The notes: generated by a model not told the origin, from the sequence alone. 64,000 nucleotides of DNA from an uncultured Thermoleophilaceae bacterium (GCA_963812415.1 CAWEVH010000026.1:68973-132972); one strand, 5' to 3'. Numbered from the stretch's first letter, positions 2,257-63,422 are shown. Made by a program: numbers and translations.

Positions 2257-3978
2257 CTACAGCACCAGGCCCGCCTCGAGCAGCCCGTCGAGCTCCTCGG
2301 GTGGCAGGGGGCGGGAGAAGAGGAAGCCCTGGCCGATCCGGCACTCGAGGTCGCGCAGGGCCGAGGCGTGGTCGTCGGTCTCGATGCCCTCCGCCACGAC
2401 CTGCATCGAAAGCGCGGCGCCCATCGCCAGGGCGGCGGCCACCAGCGCGGTGTCGGGCGAGTCGGGGCCCATGCCCTGGACGAACGAGCGGTCGATCTTG
2501 AGCACGTCGGCCGGCATGTGGCGCAGCTGGTCCAGCGAGGAGTAGCCGGTGCCGAAGTCGTCGATCGCCACGCAGACGCCCGCGAGGCTCAGCTCGCGCA
2601 GTGCGCGGAAGCCGGAGTCGCGGTCCGCCATCGCGGTGCTCTCGGTGACCTCGATGCAGAGGCAGGAGGGGTCGATCGCGGTGCGGCGGACGGCGCCGAG
2701 CACGGTGCTCACGATGTCCGGGTGGGAGAGCTCGCGCGCGCCGAGGTTCACCGACAGGCGCAGTCCGGCGGTCTCCTCGCGGTCCTGCCAGGTGCGCAGC
2801 CGGCGGCAGACCTCGCCGACGGCCCAGCTGCCGATCTCCACGATCAGCCCGCTCTCCTCGGCGACCTCGAGAAACGTCCCCGGTGCGAGCAGGCCGCGCT
2901 CGGGATGCTCCCAGCGCAGCAGGGCCTCGGCGCCGATCATGCGGCCGCTGACCAGGTCGACCTGCGGCTGGTAGTGGAGCCGCAGCTCGCCGTGCTCGAT
3001 CGCGCGCTGGAGCTCCTGCTCCACCTCGAGCGCCTTCACGGCCCGCTCGCGCATGCCCGTGTCGAAGAGCTCGGCGCGCGAGCCGCCGCGCTCCTTGGCG
3101 CGGTACATCGCGGCGTCGGCGTCCTCGACCAGGCGCTCCACGTCCACGGTCTCGCCGGGCTCGGCCAGCGCGACGCCGATGCTCGCCGACAGCCGCAGCT
3201 CGGCCGCGCCGATCCGGATCGGCTCGGCGAGCGGGCGCTGCAGGCGATCCGCCACACCCACGGCCTCGAGCACTCCCCCGAGCGACTCGCACAGGATCGT
3301 GAACTCGTCGCCGCCGAAGCGGGCCACGGTGTCCTCGGGGCGGAGCGTGGCTCGCAGCCGGCGCGCCACCTCGCGCAGCACCTCGTCGCCGGCGGCGTGG
3401 CCGAGGCTGTCGTTGATGCGCTTGAAGCGGTCGAGGTCCAGGAAGAAGACGGCGGTGCTGGCGTCCTGGTCGCGGCGCGACAGCGCGTGGGCGAGCCGGT
3501 CGGCGAAGAGGCCGCGGTTCGGCAGGCCGGTGAGCGAGTCGTAGAGCGCCAGGTGCTCGAGCTCGGCCTCCATGCGCTTGCGGTCGGTCACGTCGAGGAA
3601 GACGCCATAGAAGAGCGGCGGCTCGCGATCACCCACGCCGCGCACGACGGTCATCTCGTCGCGGATCCAGGCCCAGCGCCCGTCGGCGGTCCGCAGGCGG
3701 TACTCCTGCACGAGCGCGTGGCCCGAGCGCGCGCATTCGGCCTCGTTCTCGGTCACGCGCCCGTAGTCGTCCGGGTGCACGAGGCGGTCCCACATCGCGT
3801 CGTCCGCCATCCATTCCTCGCGCGTGTATCCGAGCACGCGCTCGATCGAGGGGCTGATGTAGGCGCAGCGGGCGTCGAGACCGGGCTCGTACACGTACGC
3901 GACGGACGGCAAGCCCTCGGGCAGGGGCCCGTACCTCGCCTCAATCGTGCGAAGCGCGCGCTCGCGATCCGAAGACAT
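2257..3978 (-). CDS. PAS-GGDEF-EAL c-di-GMP turnover protein
   Basis: Track ORF 2257..4215. The first 79 codons are Arg/Gly-rich and overlap tadA, so I place the start at ATG 3978 (MSSDRERAL). Motifs: RFGGDEFTIL, EALLRWEHP, DDFGTGYSSL. Confidence 0.9.
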   Translation of the reverse strand: MSSDRERALRTIEARYGPLPEGLPSVAYVYEPGLDARCAYISPSIERVLGYTREEWMADDAMWDRLVHPDDYGRVTENEAECARSGHALVQEYRLRTADGRWAWIRDEMTVVRGVGDREPPLFYGVFLDVTDRKRMEAELEHLALYDSLTGLPNRGLFADRLAHALSRRDQDASTAVFFLDLDRFKRINDSLGHAAGDEVLREVARRLRATLRPEDTVARFGGDEFTILCESLGGVLEAVGVADRLQRPLAEPIRIGAAELRLSASIGVALAEPGETVDVERLVEDADAAMYRAKERGGSRAELFDTGMRERAVKALEVEQELQRAIEHGELRLHYQPQVDLVSGRMIGAEALLRWEHPERGLLAPGTFLEVAEESGLIVEIGSWAVGEVCRRLRTWQDREETAGLRLSVNLGARELSHPDIVSTVLGAVRRTAIDPSCLCIEVTESTAMADRDSGFRALRELSLAGVCVAIDDFGTGYSSLDQLRHMPADVLKIDRSFVQGMGPDSPDTALVAAALAMGAALSMQVVAEGIETDDHASALRDLECRIGQGFLFSRPLPPEELDGLLEAGLVL

Positions 3979-48721: not shown

Positions 48722-50596
48722 TCAGCTCGGGGAGGCGTCCGGGCGCTTCAACGCCTGATCGACGTCGCGGTACTCCTCCACCCGCACGATGCGGGCATCG
48801 CGGACCTGGACGGCGTAGGTCTCCCGTACGTCGACCGCGATCCCGCTGCCGCGCCCCCGAAGCCGGGCGCTCCACGGAACGATGACCCAGTCGCCACGCT
48901 CGATGAAGTCCTCGAACTCCATGACCCCGGCGAAGCGGTCCTCCCACGGCTCCCTGAGGGAGTCGACAAAGCGATGAAGGCCCGCGAGCCCTCGATAGAC
49001 CTGCGGGTCGGGCTCGTCATCCGCGGTGTGCCATTCCGCGTCCGCGTCGTGCGCGGCGAACGCCGTGTCGAAGTCGCCGCTGCCGAAGGCCTCGAGGCTG
49101 CGCCGCACGATCTCGACGTTCTCGCTGGGGCGCGCGGGTGTGGCTCGGGGGCGTCGCTGGGGTCGCGCCACAACGAGGTAGGCTAGCCCCAGGACGGCGA
49201 TCAGCGCCAGCACGAGCGGCGCGGCCCAGACCTGGTACCAGGGAGCGCCCGGCGGTGCGAGCGACTCGCGCGGCCAGGCGATGTTGACCGTCTCGAACCC
49301 GAGCCAGGCCACGGCCAGAGCGTTGATCGCCATGCCGGCGCGCCCGAGCCGAACGCGACCGGCGGGCCGCCAGCGGCCGCGCACGCGCGCCGTCAGCGCC
49401 GCCAGGGCGATCAGCAGGAAGGCCACGTAGATGGCCGCCGTGCCGAACGTGATCAGACTGCCCACCGCAGCCGAGCTGAGCCCGAGCAGCAGGCCGAGGC
49501 AGGCGATCAGCGCGGTCAGCGCCACGGCCGGGAGCGGTGAGCGTCGCGAGTCGACTCGCCGCAGGATGCGCGAGCCCGGCAGCACGCCGTCGCGGGCGAT
49601 CGAGTAGATCCCCCGCGCCGTCAGGCCCTGCGCGGCCATGCCGCAGGCCAGGAACGCGACGAGCACCACGGCGGCGAACGGCTTGGCGGACCAGGAGCCG
49701 AAGGAGCTGACGACCGCCGTCGAGATCGGATCGAGGTCATCGCCGGCCACGACGGCGGCGGGGTTCGGATGCGCGAGCGTGGCCGCGACCGCGTTGAGGA
49801 TGACGAGCGCGCCGACGCTCAGGAGCGCCACCCAGATCGCTCGCGGCACGTGGCGCGCGGCGGTGCGAGTCTCCTCGGCGGCCGAGACGCAGGCGTCGAA
49901 CCCGATGAACACCCAGCCCCCGACCGCCAGCGCGGCCAGCATGCCGGCCGAGGTCGATCCGCCCGACAGCGCCTCCGCCCCGAGCGACTCGCTGAGGATC
50001 GACACGTCCTGCTCGCGGAACACGAGCAGCAGGGCCAGGCCGATGCCCACGGAGGCGACGACCTCGGCCGTCACGCCCGCCTTCACCGCCCAGCTGAGCG
50101 GCCGGATGCCGAGGGCGCCGACCAGCGCGCAGATGACTACGAGCACCATGCCCATGAGCACCAGCGCATTCGCCGTCGGGTCGATCTCCAGCAGGGTCAG
50201 GGCCCAGGGCGCCCCGAGATAGGCGATCGTGGTGTTCGCGACCGCGTACGCGCACACCGCGACCCAGCCGGCGAACCAGCCGTACGCGGGCCCGACCAGG
50301 CGGCGCGTCCACTGATAGGCGCCGCCGGCAAGCGGGAACTCCGAGGCCAGCTCGGCGTAGACGGCCAGCAGCAGGCACTGCCCCGCCAGCGCGACCGGGA
50401 GCACCCACACCCAGGCCGGTCCCGCCACCGTCGTGCCGACGAGCACCACGGCGTACAGCCCCACCACGGGGGAGATCGCCGCAAAGCCGAGCGCGACGTT
50501 GTCGACCAGGCGCAGACGCCGCTCGAGCTCCTGCGGATAGCCGAGCTCACGCAGGCGCGCAGCGTCGGCGTCGACCGGCGCCGCCGCGGAGCTCAC
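48722..50596 (-). CDS. APC-family amino-acid permease with an in-frame C-terminal SnoaL/NTF2-like domain
   Basis: Part of track ORF 48722..51496, starting at GTG 50596, which overlaps the regulator stop (GTGA). About 12 TM helices run up to ...LALIAVLGLAYLVVARPQRR. With no stop it continues as ...SENVEIVRRSLEAFGSGDFDTAFAAHDADAEWH...VRDARIVRVEEYRD. Length is 1875 nt, exactly 625 codons. Confidence 0.7.
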   Translation of the reverse strand: MSSAAAPVDADAARLRELGYPQELERRLRLVDNVALGFAAISPVVGLYAVVLVGTTVAGPAWVWVLPVALAGQCLLLAVYAELASEFPLAGGAYQWTRRLVGPAYGWFAGWVAVCAYAVANTTIAYLGAPWALTLLEIDPTANALVLMGMVLVVICALVGALGIRPLSWAVKAGVTAEVVASVGIGLALLLVFREQDVSILSESLGAEALSGGSTSAGMLAALAVGGWVFIGFDACVSAAEETRTAARHVPRAIWVALLSVGALVILNAVAATLAHPNPAAVVAGDDLDPISTAVVSSFGSWSAKPFAAVVLVAFLACGMAAQGLTARGIYSIARDGVLPGSRILRRVDSRRSPLPAVALTALIACLGLLLGLSSAAVGSLITFGTAAIYVAFLLIALAALTARVRGRWRPAGRVRLGRAGMAINALAVAWLGFETVNIAWPRESLAPPGAPWYQVWAAPLVLALIAVLGLAYLVVARPQRRPRATPARPSENVEIVRRSLEAFGSGDFDTAFAAHDADAEWHTADDEPDPQVYRGLAGLHRFVDSLREPWEDRFAGVMEFEDFIERGDWVIVPWSARLRGRGSGIAVDVRETYAVQVRDARIVRVEEYRDVDQALKRPDASPS

Positions 50597-53519
50597 GGCG
50601 CGTCCACAAGCCCCGGCCGCTCTCGGCGATCCTGTTCGACGATGCGGGCCACCTCCACCCGGGACGATGCTCCGAGCTTCACGAAGATGTTGCGGATGTG
50701 CGTCTCGATCGTCTTCTTGCTGAGGAACAGCTTGTCGGCGATCTGCGGGTTGGTCAGCCGATCGGTGATGAGCTCGGCGATCTCGAGCTCGCGCTTGGTC
50801 AGGGACCCGACGCCCGAGTCCTCGCCCGTCGCGGGCCCGCGCACCTCCGCGCGCGCGCCGAGCTTGCGCAGCTCGCGCCTCGCCTCGTCGCGCACGCGGA
50901 GCGACCGGCATCGGTCGAGCGCCTCCTCGGCCTGGCGAAGCACCGCGACGGCCTCCGGCCGCTGGTCTAGGGCGGCGAGCGCCTTGCCCTGGATCATGAG
51001 CGCGTAGGCGGCGGGCAGGCGCGCGCCGAGCCCTTCGAGCTCCGCCGCCGACTGCGCGGCGGCCTCGGCTGCCCCCGCCGCGTCCTCGCTCGCCAGCAGC
51101 AGCGCCGCCCGGCCACGCCGGGCCAGGGCGGTGGGAAGCGCGAGGCCGAGGCGGGCGGCCTGCTCCTCGGCCAGATCCACGTAGCGGGCGGCCGCGTCGA
51201 GGTCTGAGCGGGCGAGCTCGACCGTGGCGAGCTCCTCCCAGTAGAAACAGCGCTCGACGGGTATGGCGTGCTCGAGGTCCCCGCCGCCGATGGCCTCCAC
51301 CACCTCGAACCCGCGCTCGAGGTCCCCGCGCTCGAAGAGCGCCGACGCCAGCGGCCAGCCGGGCCCGCCGCTGGCCGCCGGCATTGTGCTGCCCGCCAGC
51401 CGGCCACCCACGCGATGGCTCTCCTCGCAGAGGTCGACCGCCTCGTCGAGGTTGCCGAGGTAGTAGTGCGCCCAGGCAAGCTCGAAGAGTGCCCACGACA
51501 GGTTGTGCGGGTTGCCGGACAGGCGCGCGCCTTCCACGGCCGCCTCGGTCACCTCGAGCGCCTCGGTCATCCGGCCCTGGATCTCGAACGGGTAGCCCTT
51601 GACCAGCATCAGGGGAAGCAGCAGGCGTCCCTGACCAGCCGAGCGCGCGATCTCGATTCCGCGGTCGGCGTGGGCGATCGCCTCGTCGTAGTGCTCGAGG
51701 TAGTTCTCGGCCCAGCCCAGGTAGTAGAGCGCCTCCAGGCGGGGCGCGAGCTCGGCGTCCGAGAGCCGGTCGACGTACTCGAGCGCCTCGGCGCGGTGCT
51801 CCTTTGCCGCGGCGATGTCACCGACGGCGGCCTCGCCCAGGCAGAGGGCCGACACGGCGGCAGCGATCAGGGCTTCGTCGCCCAACGCATGCGCGGTGTC
51901 GCGAGCGCCGCGGCCCATCGCGAGCGTCTGCTCGAAGTCGCGTTCGTAGAGCCCGTCGATGCTGAGCTCGATCTGGAGCGCCGCGGCCGCGGGTGTCGAG
52001 CGGTCGGGCACCTCATCCCAGGCACGCGTCAGCCGCACGTGGGCCTCGTCGTGCCGGCCCTGCCAGTGCTCGACGGCGGCGCACCGGGTCGTCAGCTCCA
52101 CCCGGCGGACGACGGAGTCGGGCGGGAGCAGGTCGATGGCCTCGAGCAGCGTGCTGCGGCAGCGCTCGAGCTCGCCCACCGACCGCAGCGCGGAGGCGAG
52201 TTCCGCCCGCACCGACACCTGCCGATCCGTGTCGCCGCTCGGCAAGAGGCGCAGCGCCGCCTCGAACCAGCGAGCCGCGGCCTCCGGAGCCCGGGCGTTG
52301 GCGGACCTCCCCGCCTCGAGCAGGAGCTCGATCGCCGCCTCGTCGCCCTGCCGCGCCGACTGCTCCACGTGGTGGGCGCGCTCGGTGGCCTGTGCCCCCC
52401 GGGCAGCGAGGAGCTCCGCGGCGCGCGCATGCGCCGCAAGCCGCCAGCCGGCGCGTGACGAGTCGTACACCGCGCGCCGCACGAGCGGATGGCGGAAGGC
52501 GAACCGGCGCGGCACCCGGGTGGGCCGAACGAGGTCCAGGTCGAGCAGGTCGTCGAGCGCCTCGAGGGCTTGGTCGGTCTCGACGTCCGCGATCGCCCCG
52601 GCGAGGTCGGGCTCGAACGGCTCGCCGGCCACGGCCGCGGCCTCCAAGAGCCGCCGCGGGGCGTCCTGCCAGCGCGGCGAGCTCTCCGGCGATTGCGCCC
52701 GCCACCGCCGGCGGGACGCCCCCGTTGCCCTCGCCGCCAACGTCGGTCGTGGCAAGGTCGCCCTCCTGCGCCGCGCGGCCCAGCTGCTCGAGATAGAAGG
52801 GGTTGCCGCCTCCGTGGCTGTAGGCGGCGGCCACCGCCGCCGGGTCGAGCCCGTCGAGGAGCTGCCTGGCCTCGTCCGGACCGAGCTGGGCGAGATCGAG
52901 CCTCGTGACCGTCGGCGCCGTGAGGGGGCCGGCCAGCCGCTGCGCGGCGGGGCCGGGGCGAAAGCCCAGCGCCAGCAGCACGGGACCGGTCGGGGAGCGG
53001 CGCGCCAGCGCGGCGATCAGCTCGAGCGAGGCGCCGTCGCTCCAGTGCAGGTCGTCGAGGATCACGACGAGCGGCTGGGGCTCGGCTATCAGGGCGAGCA
53101 GGCGCGTGACGGCGCGGTGTGCGCGGTAGCGCTCGTCCGGCAGCGCGCCCGCGCCTCCATCGGCGCCGCCGAGCGAGGGCAACACCTGGGCCGAGCTCCT
53201 CCGCCAGGGCGGCATCCCAGGCCGCGTGGCTCTCGAAGTCCTGTGAGACCACATAGGCGTCGAGGGCGTCGACCCAGACGCTGAACGGCAGCTCGCGCTC
53301 GAACTCCGCCGCGGCGCCCGAGAGCACGACGCAGCCGCGCTCCTCTCCCCGTCGCCGCAGCTCGTCCAGCAGCCGGGTCTTGCCGATGCCCGCCTCGCCC
53401 TCGAAGGTCAGGAAGCGCGCCTCGCCGTCGCCGAGCGCGTCGAGCGCCGCCTCGATCTGCGTGAGCTCGCGCTCGCGACCGATCGTCGTGGCCCGGCCGG
53501 GACTCGACCCTCGCTCCAC
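50593..53519 (-). pseudogene. Large ATP-binding LuxR-family regulator (LAL/MalT-like: AAA ATPase, TPR-like region, LuxR HTH); two frame breaks (near 53188..53193 and 52665..52672)
   Basis: Pieces lie in three frames. ORF 52092..53519 has GEAGIGKTRLL (Walker A). ORF 52013..53254 has PLVVILDDLHWSD (Walker B). ORF 50593..52755 has the long helical repeat region and LTKRELEIAELITDRLTNPQIADKLFLSKKTIETHIRNIF. Length is 2927 nt, a multiple of 3 plus 2. Confidence 0.85.
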
Positions 53520-53536
53520 GGGGCGAGCATACGCCC

Positions 53537-53579
53537 CAGGGTGCGGTTCAGGGTGTCGGTTCAGGGCGCCCGCCCGATG
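53537..53579 (+). promoter_or_regulatory. TCAGGG direct-repeat element, copy A (LAL regulator / MMPL divergent spacer)
   Basis: CAGGGTG at 53537, TCAGGGTG at 53548 and TCAGGGCG at 53561 (spacings 12 and 13 nt), followed by CCCGATG starting 11 nt after the C of the last CAGGG. It lies 18 nt from the regulator start codon. Confidence 0.5.
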
Positions 53580-53639
53580 TCCCCACCCCGGCTCGACATC
53601 GACATTGCCGCTGTTCGATCAACAGCCAAAGGGGAAGCC

Positions 53640-55833
53640 GTGCAAGCACCGAGCAACATCACCGCAAGGATTGGGCGCTGGAGCGTCCAGCATCGTAAGA
53701 AGGCCATCTTCGGATGGCTGGCGTTCGTGCTCATCTCGATGGCGGTGGGATTCAACGTCCTGCCGCAGAAGCAGATCGACCCGAAGGCGGCGGGTCCAGG
53801 CGAGTCCGGCGAGGCCGCCAAGGTCATCGACGGCGCCTTCGAGGACAAGTCCAGCGAGCAGGTGCTGGTACAGAGCAGCGAGCTCACGGCCGGCGACGCC
53901 CGGTTCAAGGCGGCCGTCGCCGACGTGACCGAGCGCCTCGAGGGCACGAAGGGCGTGGACGACGTCGTCGGTCCCTACGACGGCGGCAGGGCAGATCTCG
54001 GCGGACGGGCATTCCGCGCTCGTGACGTTCGAGCTGCCGGGCGACTCCACCACGACCAAGAAGACGGTCGTGGATTCGCTGGCCGCCGTGGACGCGGCCG
54101 CGAAGGCGCATCCGGAGCTTCGGATCGAGGAGACGGGCGACGCCAGCATCACCAAGGCGACGCTCGACAAGAGCAACGAGGAGATGGGCAAGTCCACCTG
54201 CTCACGCTCCCGCTCACGCTGATCATCCTGGTGTTCACGTTCGGCGCGCTGGTGGCGGCGGGTATCCCGGTGCTGCTCGCACTCACGAGCGTGGGCGCCA
54301 CGCTCGGGCTGCTCGGACCGGTCAGCCAGATCGCGCCGGTTAGACGCATCGGTCATGCACGTGGTCCTGCTCGTCGGCATGGCCGTGGGCGTGGACTACA
54401 GCCTGTTCTACCTCAAGCGCGAGCGCGAGGAGCGGGCCGCCGGGCGCGAGAAGGACGCAGCCATCGAGGCCGCCGCCGCGACCTCGGGGCGTGCGGTCGT
54501 GATCTCCGGCCTGACCGTGATGGTCGCGATGGCCGGCATGTACCTGGGCGGGATCTCGAATTTCGCCTCGTTCGCGACCGGCACGATCATGGTCGTGGCC
54601 GTCGCCGTCGCCGGCTCCCTGACCGTCCTGCCCGCCGTGCTCTCGAAGCTCGGCGACCGGGTCGAGAGGGGCCGCGTCCCGTTCGTCGGGCGCATCAAGA
54701 GTCGAGTCGGCGGAGCGGGCCTGTGGTCGCGCTTCCTGGACCGGGTGCTGCGGCGCCCGCTTGTCTCGGCGCTCGTGTCCGCGGGCCTGCTGGTGGCGCT
54801 CGCGGTGCCGGCGCTCGGCATGCAGACCTCGCTTGGCGGCAACGAGGACATCTCGCGTGACCTCCAGGTGATGCAGACCTACGACCGCATCCAGGCCGCC
54901 TTCCCGAGCGAGGGCAGCGCGGAGATGGTCGTGGTGAAGGCCGATGACGTGACCTCGACGGCCGTGGTCTCGGCGATCGACTCGCTCGAGTCGAAGGCCG
55001 CCGAGCGCCCGGGCCTGTTCGAGGGCGAGGCGACCGTCGAGATGAGCTCGGATCAGACGGTCGCAATGGTGACGCTGCCCACCACGGGCACCGGCACCGA
55101 CGAGCGCTCGAACCGGGCCGTGGATGCCCTGCGCGACGACCTCGTGCCCTCCACCCTCGGCGAGCTGGACGGCGTCGAGGCCTACACGACCGGCGAGGCC
55201 GCCGCCACCGGCGACTTCAACGACGCGATGATCGGCAACCTGCCGTACGTGTTCGCCTTCGTGCTCTCGGCGGCGTTCCTGCTGCTGCTGGTCACGTTCC
55301 GGTCACTGGTGGTGCCGATCAAGGCGATCGTGCTCAACCTGCTGTCCGTCGGCTCCGCCTACGGGCTGCTGGTGCTGGTGTTCCAGTCGGAGTGGGCCGA
55401 GGGTCTGCTCGGCTTCGAGGGCAACGGGGCCATCGCGGCCTGGCTGCCGCTGTTCCTGTTCGTGATCCTCTTCGGACTCTCGATGGACTACCACGTGTTC
55501 ATCGTGAGCCGGATCCGCGAGGCGTTCGATCGCGGGATGAAGACCGAGGACGCGGTCGCGGACGGGATCAAGAGCACCGCCGGCGTGGTCACGAGCGCTG
55601 CGATCGTGATGGTCGCCGTGTTCTCGATGTTCGCGCTCTCGTCCGAGCTGCAGATGAAGCAGATGGGCGTCGGCCTGGCGGCCGCGGTGCTGATCGACGC
55701 GACGATCATCCGCGGCGTGCTGCTGCCCTCCGCGATGAAGCTGCTCGGCGACCGCAACTGGTGGCTTCCGAAGCGCCTCAGCTGGCTGCCGAAGCTCCGT
55801 CACGAGCCGGAGGTGGTGCCCGCTAAGGCCTAG
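53640..55833 (+). pseudogene. MMPL/RND-superfamily membrane transporter; three frame breaks (near 53981..53991, 54190..54195, 54338..54344)
   Basis: Pieces: ORF 53541..54860 (ARIGRWSVQHRKKAIFGWLAFVLISMAVG...), ORF 54022..54222 (VTFELPGDSTTTKKTVVDSL...), back to the first frame (HLLTLPLTLIILVFTFGALVAAGIPVLLAL), then ORF 54355..55833 (MHVVLLVGMAVGVDYSLFYLKRERE...GLSMDYHVFIVSRIRE...). Start is GTG 53640 after AAAGGGGAAG, or ATG 53577. Confidence 0.85.
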
Positions 55834-55856
55834 TTCAAGCGACATCCACGCACGAT

Positions 55857-55890
55857 CCGGCGCCCGCCACCCGGCGGGCGCCGGTCTGTT
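55857..55890 (+). terminator. Intrinsic-terminator-like hairpin after the MMPL gene
   Basis: CCGGCGCCCGCC (55857..55868), loop ACCC, GGCGGGCGCCGG (55873..55884): a perfect 12-bp stem followed by TCTGTT. Confidence 0.65.
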
Positions 55891-55914
55891 CGGGGGGGCC
55901 GATGCCGCCTCCCT

Positions 55915-55967
55915 CAGGGCAATCTTTCAGGGTCGACGTGGGCTCGAATCAGGGTGACCGCCCGATG
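55915..55967 (+). promoter_or_regulatory. TCAGGG direct-repeat element, copy B
   Basis: TCAGGG at 55914, 55927 and 55949, then TGACCGCCCGATGA. CCCGATG again starts 11 nt after the C of the last CAGGG. It sits 33 nt upstream of ATG 56000. Confidence 0.5.
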
Positions 55968-55999
55968 ATCGCGGGCGGCTTGGAGAGCACGATCTCCCC

Positions 56000-56203
56000 A
56001 TGTCCGCAATCGAGATGCAAACCCAGCTTCAGGAGCTCCAGGCAGAGCGCGCGCTCGCGTCGCTCGAGGGGCTCGCCGACCTCGACTCCTACATGTCCGA
56101 TCTCGACCACGAGATCGCCGTGACGCGCCACGCGTACGTCGGGGCGGCCGTGACCGAGATCGCCACCCTGCGGGCCCAGCTGTCCGGGCCCCAGGTGGGA
56201 TGA
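56000..56203 (+). CDS. Hypothetical small protein S1 (67 aa, coiled-coil-like)
   Basis: Track ORF 56000..56203: MSAIEMQTQLQELQAERALASLEGLADLDSYMSDLDHEIAV... Confidence 0.5.
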   Translation: MSAIEMQTQLQELQAERALASLEGLADLDSYMSDLDHEIAVTRHAYVGAAVTEIATLRAQLSGPQVG

Positions 56204-56213
56204 GGAGCGTCCG

Positions 56214-56396
56214 ATGGCTCCGCGCTTCTGGACCGTCAAGATCGGCGAGCGCGACTTCACCGTGGCCGCCGGAACCCGCGAGGCGGCAGAGAAGATCGCC
56301 GCTCAGCGCGCGCGGCAGCACGAGCGGCCGTCAGGCCCTTCGCGGAGCCGATATCAGGGTGGCTCAGGGTGCTGGTTCAGGGCCCGCACCCGATGA
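56214..56396 (+). CDS. Hypothetical small protein S2 (60 aa as given)
   Basis: ATG 56214 lies 6 nt after GAGGAG: MAPRFWTVKIGERDFTVAAGTREAAEKIAAQRA.... The 3-prime third overlaps element C, so the true end is uncertain. Confidence 0.4.
   Translation: MAPRFWTVKIGERDFTVAAGTREAAEKIAAQRARQHERPSGPSRSRYQGGSGCWFRARTR
56355..56395 (+). promoter_or_regulatory. TCAGGG direct-repeat element, copy C
   Basis: TCAGGG at 56354, 56364 and 56377 (plus a degenerate TCAGGC at 56330), then CCCGCACCCGATGA. CCCGATG again starts 11 nt after the C of the last CAGGG. It sits 33 nt upstream of ATG 56428. Confidence 0.5.
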
Positions 56397-56427
56397 TCCG
56401 ACGGGCTGGCGAGAGGACGATCGGAGC

Positions 56428-56670
56428 ATGGCGTTCTTCCTCCTCCACCACTCCCACGAGGCACACGAGTGCGCCGCCGCATTCGCCGCCTGGCAGGGCT
56501 TCGACAGCCCGCTGCGGCACCGCCTGGCGCCCTCGAGCTGCCTGACCGGCGGCCATGGCGTGTGGTGGCGGGTCGAGGCGCCGGACCGTGACGCGGCGCT
56601 CGCGCTGCTGCCCCGCTTCGTGGCCGAGCGGACCACGCCCATCTCGATCCGAGAGGTCCAGATCCCATGA
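56428..56670 (+). CDS. Hypothetical His/Cys-rich small protein S3 (80 aa)
   Basis: In frame inside track ORF 56200..56670: MAFFLLHHSHEAHECAAAFAAWQGFDSPLRHRLAPSSCLTGGHGVWWRVEAPDRDAALALLPRFVAERTTPISIREVQIP. It looks like a conserved actinobacterial protein of unknown function. Confidence 0.6.
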   Translation: MAFFLLHHSHEAHECAAAFAAWQGFDSPLRHRLAPSSCLTGGHGVWWRVEAPDRDAALALLPRFVAERTTPISIREVQIP

Positions 56671-56828
56671 CCAATCACGCTGCCCAGGTCCACGTCGACG
56701 TCCCGCTCGTCTACATCGAGTCCACGATTCCGGCGGGAATGACGATCGCCGACTACCGCCGCTCCCGTCCTCCGCGGCCGCGGCTCGCGCGCCGGCTGCG
56801 CTGTGCGATCTCCGGGAGGACCCGATGA
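56667..56828 (+). CDS. Hypothetical small protein S4 (53 aa), translationally coupled to S3
   Basis: ATG 56667 overlaps the S3 stop (ATGA). My own translation: MTNHAAQVHVDVPLVYIESTIPAGMTIADYRRSRPPRPRLARRLRCAISGRTR. It is below the track's size cutoff. Confidence 0.45.
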   Translation: MTNHAAQVHVDVPLVYIESTIPAGMTIADYRRSRPPRPRLARRLRCAISGRTR

Positions 56829-56925
56829 CCCTCAGCTCGGCCCTGCTCATGGCGCCGTCGGGACCGTGCTCGTGGCGCTGGTGGCGCGGCTCGTGCTCGG
56901 CCATGCTAGCGCGACCGCGGCCTGC

Positions 56926-57207
56926 TCACGGCGCCGTGACGCCGTGCTCCCTCAGGTAGTCGAGGTAGAACGGGCGCAGCAGCTCGGCCACCTCGCCGCG
57001 ACCGGAGTCCGTCAGGTCGTCGAGATGCGCCCTCAGGGTCGCCACATCCGCGCCCGCCTCGCGCATCTCACCCGCGCCGGCCTCGGCCACCGGCAGCACC
57101 TCCAGGAGGTTCCAGAAGAACTTGAGGTCGACGTGGCGGCGCGCGCGGCGCAGCGCGAGGTCGTGCAGCTCGGGCGTGGACAGGCGGTCGAGCTCGTCGT
57201 CGGTCAT
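56926..57207 (-). CDS. Hypothetical protein (93 aa)
   Basis: Tail of track ORF 56926..57660, starting at ATG 57207: MTDDELDRLSTPELHDLALRRARRHVDLKFFWNLLEVLPVAEA... Confidence 0.55.
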   Translation of the reverse strand: MTDDELDRLSTPELHDLALRRARRHVDLKFFWNLLEVLPVAEAGAGEMREAGADVATLRAHLDDLTDSGRGEVAELLRPFYLDYLREHGVTAP

Positions 57208-59629: not shown

Positions 59630-59803
59630 ATGAGCCTGTTTCGACGCAAGACGACCATCGAGGACGAGCGCGAGCGCTGCCCGCACTGCAGCGAGAGGGT
59701 GCCCGAGGGTGCCTCTGAATGCGCCATGTGCGGGGTCGACCTGAGGCCCCTGCGCTCGTCCGAGGCTCAGACACGCACGGAGCGCGCGCCAGCCAGCAGG
59801 TGA
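59630..59803 (+). CDS. Small zinc-ribbon protein (57 aa)
   Basis: My own translation: MSLFRRKTTIEDERERCPHCSERVPEGASECAMCGVDLRPLRSSEAQTRTERAPASR. It is below the track's size cutoff. The stop TGA 59801..59803 overlaps GTG 59800 of the kinase. Confidence 0.65.
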   Translation: MSLFRRKTTIEDERERCPHCSERVPEGASECAMCGVDLRPLRSSEAQTRTERAPASR

Positions 59804-60942
59804 TCGCGCCCGCGCGGCGCGCGTCGCGGGTCGTCGCCCGGCGGCCTAAGCCAACGCATCGAGACGGGTTCTGGTGGACTGTCACGGACAGCCTCGATCG
59901 GGCCGAGCCCTTGACCACCTCCCCATCCGCCGCCAGATCGTCACTCGCCGCGCGGCCTCGCGCAGCCGGCCGGGGACGTCGGCTATCGCTGCTCTGGTGG
60001 GTCTTCCTCGCCAACGCGGCCGTTCTCGTCGTCGCTCTGCTGCTGCTCACGTTCAGTCCGATCACCATCGATGCACCGATCAAGACCGGGCAGTTCGTGC
60101 TGCTGCTGGCCGGGTTCCTCGCGCTGCTGGCGCTGAACCTGGTGTTGTTGCGCCGGGTCCTGTCCCCGCTGCTCGAGCTCACGAACCTGATGGGCTCGGT
60201 CGATCCCGATCGGCCGGGCCGGCGGCTGTCCGGTGTGCAGATGCGCAGCGCCGAGGGCCAGGCGCTCGCGGACGCCTTCAACGCGATGCTCGAACGGCTG
60301 GAGACCGCTCGGCGCGAGGCCGCGCGAGCCGCCCTGGCGGCACAGGAGGCGGAACGGCTGCGGGTGGCTCGTGAGCTCCATGACGAGATCGGGCAAACGC
60401 TCACGGCGGTCACGCTCCAGGCCGAGCGGGCCGCCGACGGCGACGGCGCGTCGACGAGGCGGGAGCTTCGCCGGGTGGCCGAGGCGGTGCGGGAGAGCCT
60501 GGATGAGGTGCGGCGGATCGCTCGCGAGCTGCGGCCCGAGGCGCTCGACGATCTCGGCCTCGTGAACGCGCTGATCGCCCTGTGCCGGCGGGTCGAGGCC
60601 CAGGAGGGACTCCGTCTGGAACGCGACTTTTCGACAAAGCTGCCGGCGCTCTCCCCAGACGTCGAGCTCGTGACCTACCGCATCGCCCAGGAGGGCCTCA
60701 CGAACGCGCTGCGGCACTCGGGCGCGCAGCGCGCGACCGTCTCGCTCAAGGCGGATCCGCGGACGGTGGCGCTGGTCGTGGCCGACGACGGTCGCGGCAT
60801 GCCCGCCGAGCTACCGCCTGCCACGGCGGGAATCGCGGGCATGCGCGAGCGGGCGCTGCTCGTGGGCGGCCGGCTGTCGATCGAGTCTCGTCCCGGAGAG
60901 GGGACCGTCGTGCGGTTCACGGTCCCCGTCGAGGACGCGTGA
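59800..60942 (+). CDS. NarL-type sensor histidine kinase (2 TM with a very short outer loop, HisKA_3, HATPase_c)
   Basis: Track ORF 59719..60942. I prefer GTG 59800 (GTGA overlap with the zinc-ribbon stop). Motifs: LLWWVFLANAAVLVVALLLLTFSP, ARELHDEIGQTL, AQEGLTNALRHS, VADDGRGMP. Confidence 0.85.
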   Translation: MIAPARRASRVVARRPKPTHRDGFWWTVTDSLDRAEPLTTSPSAARSSLAARPRAAGRGRRLSLLWWVFLANAAVLVVALLLLTFSPITIDAPIKTGQFVLLLAGFLALLALNLVLLRRVLSPLLELTNLMGSVDPDRPGRRLSGVQMRSAEGQALADAFNAMLERLETARREAARAALAAQEAERLRVARELHDEIGQTLTAVTLQAERAADGDGASTRRELRRVAEAVRESLDEVRRIARELRPEALDDLGLVNALIALCRRVEAQEGLRLERDFSTKLPALSPDVELVTYRIAQEGLTNALRHSGAQRATVSLKADPRTVALVVADDGRGMPAELPPATAGIAGMRERALLVGGRLSIESRPGEGTVVRFTVPVEDA

Positions 60943-61598
60943 CCGTTCCGCTGAAGACGAGGATCCTGCTCGCGGACGACCACGCCGTCGTGCGCGACGG
61001 GCTGCGCCTGGTGCTCGACTCCGCACCGGACCTCGAGGTCGTGGCGCAGGCAGGCGACGGCGCCGAGGCGGTCGAGCTGGCCCTATCCGACGACATCGAC
61101 CTCGCGGTGCTGGACGTGACGATGCCGCGCATGACCGGACTGCAGGCCGCGCGCGAGCTGTCACGGCGCAAGCCCGAGCTGCGCGTTCTCATCCTCTCGA
61201 TGCACGACAATGAGCAGTATTTCTTCGAGGCGCTCAAATCCGGGGCGTCGGGCTACGTGCTCAAGTCGGTCGCGAACCGCGACCTGATCGAAGCCTGCCG
61301 GGCCACCATGCGGGGCGAGCCGTTCCTCTACCCGAACGCCGTCAGGGCCCTCGTTCGCGACTACCTCGACCGCGCCAGCCGCGGCGAGACGACTCCGGAG
61401 GACCCGCTCAGCCCACGTGAGCTCGAGGTGGTCAAGCTGATCGCCGAGGGGCTCACCAGCGAGGAGATCGCGGAGCAGCTGTTCATCAGCAAGAAGACGG
61501 TCGACCGCCACCGCGCCAACGTGCTCGAGAAGCTCGGAATGCGCAATCGCGTGGAGCTGACCCGCTACGCCATCCGCCGGGGACTCGTCGTCCCGTAG
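60939..61598 (+). CDS. LuxR/NarL-family response regulator
   Basis: GTG 60939 overlaps the kinase stop (GTGA). Motifs: RILLADDHAVVRDG, LAVLDVTMPRMTG, LSPRELEVVKLIAEGLTSEEIAEQLFISKKTVDRH. Confidence 0.9.
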   Translation: MTVPLKTRILLADDHAVVRDGLRLVLDSAPDLEVVAQAGDGAEAVELALSDDIDLAVLDVTMPRMTGLQAARELSRRKPELRVLILSMHDNEQYFFEALKSGASGYVLKSVANRDLIEACRATMRGEPFLYPNAVRALVRDYLDRASRGETTPEDPLSPRELEVVKLIAEGLTSEEIAEQLFISKKTVDRHRANVLEKLGMRNRVELTRYAIRRGLVVP

Positions 61599-61623
61599 GA
61601 AGACGCGAAAAACACTCGTCTTT
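61599..61623 (+). terminator. Weak terminator-like hairpin after the response regulator
   Basis: GAAGACG, an 11-nt loop, then CGTCTTT running into TTTGGG. The stem is short and AT-rich, so this is tentative. Confidence 0.3.
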
Positions 61624-61674
61624 GGGCATTGAGACCCATGGCCGCATCCACCCGCCGGGGCGACGATCCGACGC

Positions 61675-61983
61675 ATGAATACATCCGATCGCCTCGCTGA
61701 CCATGCCGCCGAGTTGGTGGCGGCCCTGGTGACGCTCGAGGAGAGGCTTCAGGCGCTGAGTGGCGCCTGCTATCAGCTGGCCGCCGACGCCTCGCCCATG
61801 GACGGGCTCTCGCGCGAGCAGGGGGCACGCCTGATGGGAGCGCTCCACGACGTGGGGGCGGGATTGGCGCGCGGCGCTCGCGTGTGCCGCGACGGCAGGG
61901 CCACGATCGGTCCCCTGATCGACGATGACAACCAGCGCTTCTGGTTCGAGAGCCGCGTGCTGCCGCCGCAGCCCGTCGCGTGA
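61675..61983 (+). CDS. Hypothetical protein (102 aa)
   Basis: Track ORF 61675..61983. No recognised motif. Confidence 0.45.
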   Translation: MNTSDRLADHAAELVAALVTLEERLQALSGACYQLAADASPMDGLSREQGARLMGALHDVGAGLARGARVCRDGRATIGPLIDDDNQRFWFESRVLPPQPVA

Positions 61984-62016
61984 CCTGAGCGCAAACCCCG
62001 TCACGAGGAGGCGGAC

Positions 62017-62439
62017 ATGCCCAACGGAATCTTCCCCCTCCCGGCGATCCAGCCGAATCCCGGCCGAAGCGGCCGGACGCGGCCGAGCCACGCCGCTCGC
62101 CGGCAGCTCCTGTCCGGCGAGGAGCGCTCACGCCTCGCCAACCGGCTCGTGACCCTCCTGGGGGATGCGCGCCGCTCCAACCTCGGCGCGTTCCGGAAGA
62201 AGACGAGGGCGCGGCATGCCGCGATCCGCCACAGCGCCGACGATCTGATGGCGCTCGTCCTTAGGCTCAGAGACGGCGAGCCGATCACGGCCCGGGGCGC
62301 GGCCATGACCGCGCTCCTCGTGGACCGCAAGGCGAGCCCGCTCCGCCGCGGAGAAGGACGCAACCTGCAGTACGCCATTCGGGCGGCGCAGGTGGCGCTT
62401 GACGGGCCCGATGGGTACGTGTCCGACCTGGCGGCCTGA
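62017..62439 (+). CDS. Hypothetical protein (140 aa)
   Basis: Track ORF 62017..62439. No recognised motif. Confidence 0.45.
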   Translation: MPNGIFPLPAIQPNPGRSGRTRPSHAARRQLLSGEERSRLANRLVTLLGDARRSNLGAFRKKTRARHAAIRHSADDLMALVLRLRDGEPITARGAAMTALLVDRKASPLRRGEGRNLQYAIRAAQVALDGPDGYVSDLAA

Positions 62440-62490
62440 GCCTCGGTGTCACGGAGGTAAGAATCGATCGCGTCCCGCCGCTAAGGAGGC

Positions 62491-62724
62491 GTGGAGCTTC
62501 GAATCGGAAACCACGCCGGCGGCGGGCGCCAACCCACGGACGTTGTCGCCTGGCGCCGCGCACGCCTTCGCAGGGCCGGCTTCGAGCCGGGCCTCGCGGA
62601 GCCGCTCGCACGCGAATGCGGCGTGGACCTCCATGCGCTCATCCAGCTCGTCGAGCGCGGTTGCCCGCCGGTGCTGGCGGCGCGGATCCTGGCGCCGCTC
62701 GAGCACGAGAGGCGTGAGTGTTGA
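62491..62724 (+). CDS. Hypothetical small protein (77 aa)
   Basis: Track ORF 62491..62724. AAGGAGG lies immediately upstream. The sequence is ...WRRARLRRAGFEPGLAEPLARECGVDLHALIQLVERGCPP.... It overlaps the sigma-factor start. Confidence 0.5.
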   Translation: MELRIGNHAGGGRQPTDVVAWRRARLRRAGFEPGLAEPLARECGVDLHALIQLVERGCPPVLAARILAPLEHERREC

Positions 62725-63422
62725 GCGCTTCGGGCGGTGTTAGCCTCGGCGCGGGCATGAGCTCGCACCTGCCCATCGGCGCCGCCGCGGGCGAGCCGGA
62801 CCCGGCGCAGGCGGAGTCGCGCGCCTGGCTGGCTGCGCTCCGTTCCACGGGCACTGTGCGCGAGGAGGCCGTCGCGCGCCTGCACGAGCTGCTGCTGCGC
62901 GCGGCCCGCTTCGAGGTCGCGCGGCGGCGAGCGGCGCTTGCTCGCGTACGCGGCGAGGAGCTCGACGACATCGCCCTCCAGGCCGCGGATGACGCCCTCG
63001 TGGCGGTGCTCGCCAAGCTCGACGACTACCGCGGCGCGAGTCGCTTCACCACCTGGGCATACAAGTTCGCCCTGCTCGAGGCCGGCGTGCGGCTTCGCCG
63101 GCGGGCATGGCAGCAACGGGAGGTGGTGCTCGAGCCGGAGGTCTGGCCGCTGATGGCCGATGCCGCCCGCGGTCCCGAGAGCCAGGTCGAGCTGGGTGAG
63201 CTGATGCGGGCGCTCGAGCGCTCGATCAACGACTGCCTCACCGAGCACCAGCGCGAGGTGCTGGTCGCACTCACGCTCAACGGCGTGCCGCTGGACGTGC
63301 TGGCCGAGCGGCTCGGCACGACCCGCGGTGCGCTCTACAAGACACTTCACGACGCACGGCGAAAGCTCCGTACCGACCTCGCGCGGCGCGGCTTCTCGCT
63401 CGACGATCTGGTGGGACACTGA
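62718..63422 (+). CDS. ECF-type sigma-70 family RNA polymerase sigma factor
   Basis: Region 2 (DDIALQAADDALVAVLAKLDDYRGASRFTTWAYKFAL) and region 4 (LTEHQREVLVALTLNGVPLDVLAERLGTTRGALYKTLHDARRKLR). Start is GTG 62718 after GAGAGG, or ATG 62757. Confidence 0.85.
   Translation: MLSASGGVSLGAGMSSHLPIGAAAGEPDPAQAESRAWLAALRSTGTVREEAVARLHELLLRAARFEVARRRAALARVRGEELDDIALQAADDALVAVLAKLDDYRGASRFTTWAYKFALLEAGVRLRRRAWQQREVVLEPEVWPLMADAARGPESQVELGELMRALERSINDCLTEHQREVLVALTLNGVPLDVLAERLGTTRGALYKTLHDARRKLRTDLARRGFSLDDLVGH

Follow-up and report, generated by a model that had tools for sequence, protein, structure and literature searches.

A TCAGGG direct-repeat module beside a LAL regulator gene of Thermoleophilaceae as a candidate MalT-style activator-dependent promoter

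In a 64,000-nucleotide (nt) stretch of DNA from an uncultured Thermoleophilaceae bacterium (GCA_963812415.1, CAWEVH010000026.1:68973-132972; the whole stretch is hereafter the window, and positions are counted from its first letter), the same TCAGGG direct-repeat element occurs three times beside a gene for a LAL (STAND/MalT-like LuxR) regulator, once before an MMPL-family transporter gene and twice before small open reading frames (ORFs), here designated S1-S2 and S3-S4. What kind of element is this, and which protein reads it? An initial annotation had proposed a DNA operator of the adjacent LAL protein, with a shared 5′ leader RNA as the alternative. The whole is probably best explained as a MalT-style activator-dependent promoter and operator for LAL, and it is rather likely that LAL itself is the binder at the three sites of the window.

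Direct reading of the sequence placed all three copies, on the plus strand, where the initial annotation had put them. Copy A (53536..53579) fills the spacer that parts the LAL start (GTG 53519, minus strand) from the divergently oriented MMPL gene, as had been described, and comprises CCAGGG (53536-41), TCAGGG at 53548-53 and 53561-66, and a proximal box CCCGATG at 53573-79. Copy B (55914..55967) carries TCAGGG at 55914-19, 55927-32 and 55949-54, a degenerate CGTGGG at 55937-42, and CCCGATG at 55961-67, while copy C (56354..56395) carries TCAGGG at 56354-59, 56364-69 and 56377-82 and CCCGATG at 56389-95. The claim that CCCGATG starts 11 nt past the C of the last CAGGG also held for each of them. 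With three to four repeats, every window copy shows the multiple asymmetric boxes of a MalT-type promoter. The pattern CAGGG-N6-CCCGATG gave three exact matches in the window vs. none in all 100 dinucleotide-preserving shuffles, and the triple-repeat pattern gave three vs. none as well. The bare TCAGGG hexamer was found 37 times with 33 expected, that is, without overall enrichment, indicating that the signal resides in the arrangement. Relaxed matching added only 59914 (minus strand) and 61818 (plus strand), both of which have no upstream repeats and were treated as chance matches; no site with upstream repeats was found in the window outside the LAL-MMPL-S cluster.

The general layout of the module is two to four direct TCAGGG(T)G repeats about 13 nt apart, then the proximal box CCCGATG(T/A), which begins 12 nt past the T of the last TCAGGG, and a -10 hexamer that begins 20-21 nt after the box. 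In 69 related sites, the spacing to the second repeat upstream is 11-13 nt, in most cases 13, and 38 of them have a further repeat; repeats beyond the second stand 10-13 or about 22 nt further upstream.

The ungapped alignment of 38 distinct sites showed that the invariant columns past the box are A29, T33, C39 and A40-T41-G42, which become A-11, T-7 and C-1 when the A of the ATG is taken as +1. A29, T33 and C39 were specified by no search pattern, and the ATG offset served solely to select the 38 sites. The ATG lies 32-33 nt past CCCGATG in 54 of 86 sites, where the offset peaks sharply. The -10 hexamer is a weak VANNNT (V = A, C or G) without T at -12. No conserved ribosome-binding site precedes the module-linked ATGs in related sites, and on sequence reading none stands at a usable distance before the S1 ATG. 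In M. smegmatis, the ANNNT element occupies -6..-13, promoters with TANNNT are stronger than those with VANNNT, and an ATG or GTG at the 5′ end suffices for leaderless translation (PMC6448022). Relative to the predicted start, the hallmarks of a leaderless actinobacterial promoter, ANNNT about 6-7 nt before ATG or GTG and no ribosome-binding site, are thus present. Since A-11 and T-7 together with ATG at +1 match the actinobacterial -10 signature, the block from CCCGATG to ATG appears to be a promoter core, not a transcribed leader. This explains why the similarity of copies B and C stops exactly at the ATG. The initial annotation had correctly seen this similarity reach the start codon, although the gap between CCCGATG and ATG is 32 nt in both copies, not 33 as it had stated.

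The S1 and S3 transcripts are accordingly predicted to be leaderless and to start at the A of the ATG. The predicted -10 hexamers, all on the plus strand, are CACGAT at 55988..55993 for promoter B, with the start at the A of ATG 56000, and GACGAT at 56416..56421 for promoter C, with the start at the A of ATG 56428; in both, the A-11 and T-7 are those invariant in the 38 sites. For the MMPL promoter (copy A), the predicted -10 is GACATT at 53601..53606, placed 21 nt past CCCGATG as in related sites. The MMPL transcript would start near 53613; its leader, of about 27 nt, would contain the ribosome-binding site AAAGGGGAAG ahead of GTG 53640. The GACATT hexamer and this leader layout recur in four related loci (L001, L002, L008 and L213), and many other MMPL orthologs are predicted to be leaderless. 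Counted from the predicted +1, the proximal box occupies -39..-33, the last repeat -51..-46 and the next one -64..-59, so that the box would abut or overlap the -35 region of a promoter lacking a good -35. Consistently, the region scanned held no sigma-70 consensus promoter and no -35 consensus, which fits activator dependence and is uninformative alone. Each copy is therefore, in our estimate, probably a complete activator-dependent promoter, rather than an operator plus an RNA leader.

To what extent this arrangement is kept in relatives was evaluated with loci picked without the motif, nine via S3 homologs (L001-L009, seven of them distinct) and five via LAL similarity (64-94% identity); in the S3-selected loci, the module was counted with one mismatch per box allowed. 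A LAL gene lies within 8 kb in 6/7 distinct S3-selected loci. The module is present in the LAL/MMPL spacer of L001, L002, L004, L007, L008, L009, L213, L214 and L215, as well as of L018 and L032 from the genome-contig scan below, and in L005/6 it is upstream of an MMPL gene not adjoining LAL. It is also found upstream of S1 in L001, L002, L003, L032, L213 and L217, and upstream of S3 in L001/2, L005/6, L008, L213-L217 and many metagenome contigs. L001 and L002 each have two LAL paralogs, and each paralog is divergent from a module-bearing promoter. The five LAL-selected loci have 13 sites in total, 2-3 per locus, and four of these loci carry one in the 5′ spacer of the LAL gene itself. In the S3-selected loci, the module is kept at the promoter types seen in the window, those of MMPL, S1 and S3.

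Pattern scans gave a consistent picture of the promoter core. The metagenome scan with GGTTCAGGG-N6-CCCGATG returned at least 120 loci. Among hits with a second repeat 11-14 nt upstream (n = 48), 46 have A and T at the -11 and -7 positions and 38 have an ATG 32-33 nt past the box, compared with 17 and 11, respectively, among the mostly chance hits without a second repeat (n = 68). In one locus (L164, about 3225-3561), a tandem 21-nt repeat (GGTTCAGGGAACTCCCCCGATG-like) that is unrelated to the promoter module yields many chance pattern matches. The genome-contig scan, with N7 (not N6) between the last TCAGGG and CCCGATG, produced 83 matches, most of them chance in coding DNA of unrelated phyla; it also recovered module variants in Thermoleophilia (L018, L032, L054), PspC two-component loci, Streptomyces and Nocardia. 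Counted as distinct members, the genes directly 3′ of the module are S3 (17), S1 (9), MMPL (7), PspC-domain proteins (4) and S4 (4), and single cases are MlaE (a permease, L054), a membrane-anchored Peptidase_S15-type hydrolase, LPG_synthase_TM, a Peptidase_C26 amidotransferase and a HAD hydrolase. The common theme of the module-driven genes is the cell envelope and lipid transport.

Which protein reads these sites? The LAL gene (50593..53519, minus strand, identified by Pfam) encodes the domains expected of a LAL/STAND activator: a P-loop NTPase, a TPR-like sensor with a length of about 900-1000 amino acids (aa), and a LuxR/GerE helix-turn-helix (HTH). AAA_16 matched the N-terminus (residues 13-100, E 9.6e-15), where the Walker A motif GEAGIGKT is visible in the translation; PF00196 GerE matched the C-terminus (E 1.4e-17, 63 bits vs. 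a cut-off of 23.5); and the central region matched TPR_12 with 40.5 bits (cut-off 30.1) and TPR_MalT with 39.1 bits, the latter under its cut-off of 45. The solved structures closest to the LAL HTH are DNA-binding domains of DevR/DosR, GerE, NarL and LiaR-type regulators. An intact ortholog of 974 aa (P0121) is 94% identical.

A divergent LAL gene directly adjoins 8/29 sites whose upstream sequence extends for at least 900 nt, compared with 1/47 controls, and the LAL partner is constant while the module-driven gene varies between MMPL, S3, S1 and MlaE. LAL is favoured as the binder because it is the constant neighbour across changing targets and because LAL-selected loci carry the sites. The comparative evidence thus supports, at the level of sequence, the proposal that MMPL, S1-S2 and S3-S4 have a DNA operator in common and that it is linked to the neighbouring LAL. 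In such a mechanism, LAL, in response to its signal, would multimerise on the repeats and recruit RNA polymerase, and its occupancy would switch on MMPL, S1-S2 and S3-S4 together. The geometry of the box and repeats relative to the start would be that of a class II, MalT-type promoter.

The LAL gene may also be under the control of copy A. Its predicted -10, TATGCT at 53526..53531 on the minus strand (AGCATA on the plus strand), was read from the sequence 6 nt from the GTG, implying a leaderless LAL transcript. The TA(T/G)GCT hexamer is conserved, and a GAGC(A/C)TA block is found in the LAL-proximal spacer of most related loci. In copy A, the matching -35 position of LAL falls on repeat 2, and the distal repeats overlie the -35 and the spacer of the predicted LAL promoter. 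From this overlap we infer that LAL is probably autoregulated. Occupancy of copy A would feed back on LAL expression, most simply by repression, as suggested by the steric overlap of the repeats with the LAL promoter.

Several observations weigh against LAL as the reader of the module. In L216, one of the five LAL-selected loci, there is no site in the LAL gene's own spacer, and the sites are found 1-3 kb 3′ of the LAL gene. For many sites the available flank contains no LAL gene, e.g., L003 within 8 kb. The TCAGGG(T)G repeat differs from the MalT box. A near-identical motif is present in seven PspC-kinase loci without LAL, where a response regulator or a third factor could recognise it. Finally, the LAL gene of the window is frameshifted, split over three frames by indels into overlapping ORFs (52092-53519, 52013-53254 and 50593-52755), and could be a pseudogene. 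The MMPL gene (53640..55833, plus strand, start GTG 53640; Pfam MMPL, E 1.6e-60) has several frameshifts as well, and its orthologs in related loci are intact at 718-748 aa; both the LAL and MMPL orthologs are intact in L002 and L213. The frameshifts are probably assembly indels of a long-read metagenome rather than signs of pseudogenes, because unrelated genes of the window are frame-broken too (e.g., a dihydroxyacetone kinase at about 43.6-44.7 kb) and sister assemblies are likewise split.

The rival that survives best accepts the module as a real promoter and operator and assigns it to a trans-acting regulator other than the adjacent LAL, for example, a Lia-like NarL/LuxR-type response regulator or another shared factor, with the LAL-MMPL-S1-S3 cluster merely part of that regulator's regulon. 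We consider this possible and, on balance, unlikely. A near-identical module of TCAGGG repeats, CCCGATG and a leaderless ATG occupies the divergent spacer between an operon for a PspC-histidine kinase and a REC-GerE regulator and a PspC/LiaF-like gene in L024 (Actinocatenispora), L044, L090, L131, L148/L155 and L177, all of which are LAL-free; its architecture is TCAGGG...TCAGGG-N6/7-CCCGATG-N32-34-ATG. In the actinobacterial Lia-like system, the PspC-kinase operon and the divergent PspC gene share a promoter region (PMC11237479). The targets MMPL, MlaE, LPG_synthase_TM and PspC/LiaF resemble an envelope regulon, and sites do exist without a nearby LAL. A module of 11-nt repeat spacing and N7 also precedes leaderless genes in Streptomyces (L075, L087) and Nocardia uniformis (L082), with no regulator gene adjacent and no LAL; the products are a membrane protein of 202-206 aa in Streptomyces, with a perfect -10 TAGCGT, and a secreted protein of 86 aa in Nocardia. 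However, neither the window nor any LAL locus examined contains a PspC-kinase/response-regulator pair, and none of them has a site in a divergent spacer of the PspC-kinase/REC-GerE type. The NarL-type regulators of the window are only 30-36% identical to the PspC-linked response regulator. The constancy of LAL across targets and in the LAL-selected loci is also hard to explain if LAL is a mere passenger.

The HTH domains themselves do not decide which protein reads the motif, since the LAL HTH is no closer to those of PspC-linked regulators (about 40% identity) than to that of an unrelated response regulator of the window (60951-61598; 47%). Two explanations are therefore left for the shared motif, that both LuxR-type domains read the same DNA, or that one trans-acting factor reads all sites. 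The former would mean that, across Actinobacteria, one promoter/operator architecture serves two regulators with unrelated signal inputs, the STAND/LAL ATPase of Thermoleophilia and the response regulator of the Lia-like system, which we regard as a speculative and rather improbable extension. LAL may then have arisen by capturing the DNA-binding specificity of that response regulator.

Comparison with described systems is consistent with LAL as the preferred reader and separates the module from each of them in part. The MalT regulator of E. coli and Klebsiella has an ATP-binding NOD, a TPR-like sensor and a C-terminal LuxR HTH, as LAL does here. Its promoters have several short asymmetric boxes, including upstream direct repeats, and one box overlapping the -35 region without a good -35, and several units are co-activated, as inferred here; in E. 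coli, MalT boxes are found at the -35 and, as direct repeats, farther upstream (PMC7567727). The MalT core GGA(T/G)GA and the proximal box CCCGATG(A/T) both contain GATG(A), a resemblance only. However, the MalT box is GGGGA(T/G)GAGG, compared with TCAGGG(T)G here, so the box sequence itself does not match. The module also differs from MalT promoters in its proximal box, which is unlike the repeats upstream of it, in a periodicity of about 13 bp and in transcripts that are predicted to be leaderless. Here the regulator is encoded divergently from a putative target and probably controls its own gene; the targets are genes for envelope functions, lipid transport and uncharacterised small proteins rather than maltodextrin genes, and the lineage is Thermoleophilia. 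The module thus works like a MalT promoter, yet it is not a MalT-box promoter.

A second described case is MalT of Actinoplanes sp. SE50/110, an actinobacterial LAL activator whose conserved motif overlaps the -35 of 17 promoters of a gene cluster at a fixed distance to the transcription start (PMC7567727). In contrast to the module, that motif is a palindrome, TCATCC-N5-GGATGA, without upstream direct repeats, and it was established with mapped starts and with deletion and overexpression mutants (PMC7567727). Our case is built on comparative sequence. The Lia-like system has in common with LAL a LuxR/GerE-type DNA-binding domain, the near-identical module in a divergent spacer and the envelope theme; it differs in its phosphorylation-controlled response regulator, which is not a STAND ATPase, in the repeat spacing, often 11 nt, and in the box spacing of N7. 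SARP and OmpR/PhoB operators are likewise direct repeats directly upstream of an activator-dependent actinobacterial promoter core, but their readers are winged-helix proteins that recognise heptamer repeats with a strict 11-bp periodicity, vs. mostly 13 bp here, and no SARP or OmpR-type gene is consistently adjacent to the module in S3- or LAL-selected loci. The C. glutamicum MprA motif, TKTTAAGAAM, is unrelated to the TCAGGG module. A literature search for a TCAGGG-type operator (EsrISR, MprA box, Streptomyces LAL footprints) found no description of this motif. Most likely, the module adds one more case to an already known type of gene switch and is no RNA element.

A much weaker rival takes the two conserved blocks as the -35 and -10 of an alternative sigma factor of the extracytoplasmic function (ECF) type, for example, the ECF sigma encoded at 62718-63422, instead of an activator site. 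The spacing of the two blocks is indeed fixed, a sigma gene is only 6 kb away, and ECF regulons often include envelope genes. But the downstream block ANNNT, with invariant A and T, is of the housekeeping-sigma type and unlike the CGT-type -10 of ECF factors; there are 20 nt between CCCGATG and the -10 and only 6 nt between the last TCAGGG and the box, neither of which fits a -35/-10 gap of 16-18 nt; multiple direct repeats are not a sigma feature; and the sigma gene is not syntenic in related loci. These results make an ECF promoter very improbable.

The weakest rival reads the block as a 5′ leader RNA common to the copies, such as a riboswitch or attenuator, whose promoter would lie farther upstream. 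It could draw on the B/C similarity that reaches the start codon, on a short stem that each copy is able to form and on the leader of about 27 nt that the MMPL copy does seem to have, but it is hardly credible and was rejected, because the two stems pair in 45.8% and 41.6% of cells vs. 46.1% and 43.1% in shuffled controls, their covariation does not exceed the shuffle level, RNAalifold predicts no pair and no consensus structure, the fold energies of the three copies are ordinary (z -1.4, +0.35 and -0.3), no Rfam match at E ≤ 1 exists in 53300-57000 on either strand, and the only invariant bases past the box are the promoter signature A-11, T-7, C-1 and ATG. The two 5-bp stems noted by the initial annotation are present as sequence, but their registers differ between B and C and the comparison of related sites does not support them; its preference for an operator over a leader RNA agrees with the shuffle-level pairing of the aligned sites.

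With the activator-dependent promoter again as the preferred reading, the genes of the cluster are arranged as follows. The MMPL stop is followed by a GC-rich, perfect 12-bp hairpin (55857..55884, plus strand) without a clear U-tract, with a fold energy of -40 kcal/mol (z -3.2). It resembles a terminator and sets the MMPL unit apart from promoter B; in L008, L154 and L212, hairpins of this sort are found upstream of the module at the S3 promoter. S1 (56000..56203, plus strand) is a conserved protein of 67 aa, ending in ...AYVGAAVTEIATLRAQLSGPQVG, with homologs of 88-91% identity in L001-L003. S2 (56214..56396, plus strand) is a small ORF whose homology to the S2 of relatives (46-49 aa) is confined to the first 38 codons. 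In L001-L003 and L214, a Peptidase_S15-type hydrolase gene of about 1.3 kb stands between S2 and S3, and it is absent in the window (56331-56353 vs. L002 6650-7925); the 3′ end of S2 runs into copy C because this gene is missing here.

S3 (56428..56670, plus strand, ATG 56428) belongs to an 80-aa family and is the commonest gene 3′ of the module. Its homologs number 726 at E ≤ 0.001, from Thermoleophilaceae and soil metagenomes; the best 120 of the 726 are nearly all 80 aa long, and the named ones among these 120 come from metagenome-assembled Thermoleophilaceae genomes. The structure model (pLDDT 87) is a small ferredoxin-like alpha/beta protein, with weak fold matches to ferredoxin-like, ClcF/ABM-type proteins (E about 0.1, TM about 0.5). 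The invariant residues F4, H8, H10, C15, W22, C38, H43 and W46-W47 suggest a possible metal- or redox-active small protein. S4 (56667..56828, plus strand) is a 53-aa ORF overlapping the S3 stop, with the motif IPxGMTIxDYRRxRP and homologs in L001, L002 and L008. S1-S4 gave no match in Pfam, NCBIfam, PADLOC or PHROGs and no sequence match in PDB. Some S1 and S4 family members carry their own module copy.

On the other side of the cluster, an amino-acid permease gene (48722-50590, minus strand) is directly downstream of LAL and overlaps its stop codon; in L213, the permease has a SnoaL-like C-terminal fusion. The LAL-permease synteny is kept in L004, L008, L213, L215 and L217, and because of this the permease may be co-transcribed with LAL. 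At 59719-63422, 3-6 kb downstream of the cluster, genes for a HisKA_3-type histidine kinase, the NarL-type response regulator (60951-61598) and the ECF sigma (62718-63422) are found, and these are without synteny in related loci.

The module provides a testable regulon and a candidate operator for the large LAL family of Thermoleophilia, which has more than 2,900 relatives at E ≤ 1e-20; to our knowledge, hardly any experimental genetics exists for this soil lineage. The module also connects three families of uncharacterised small proteins with MMPL, Mce-type and further envelope functions, and it is a sequence signature for leaderless activator-dependent promoters that can be used for start-codon re-annotation. 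The motif at the Lia-like PspC two-component loci suggests a candidate operator for a widespread, poorly studied envelope-stress system. The finding would gain interest if operator sharing by STAND and Lia-like regulators proves real. In that case, ligand sensing and phosphorylation could converge on one envelope/lipid-transport regulon, which would include MMPL, Mce/MlaE, LPG-synthase-like, PspC and S1/S3/S4 genes.

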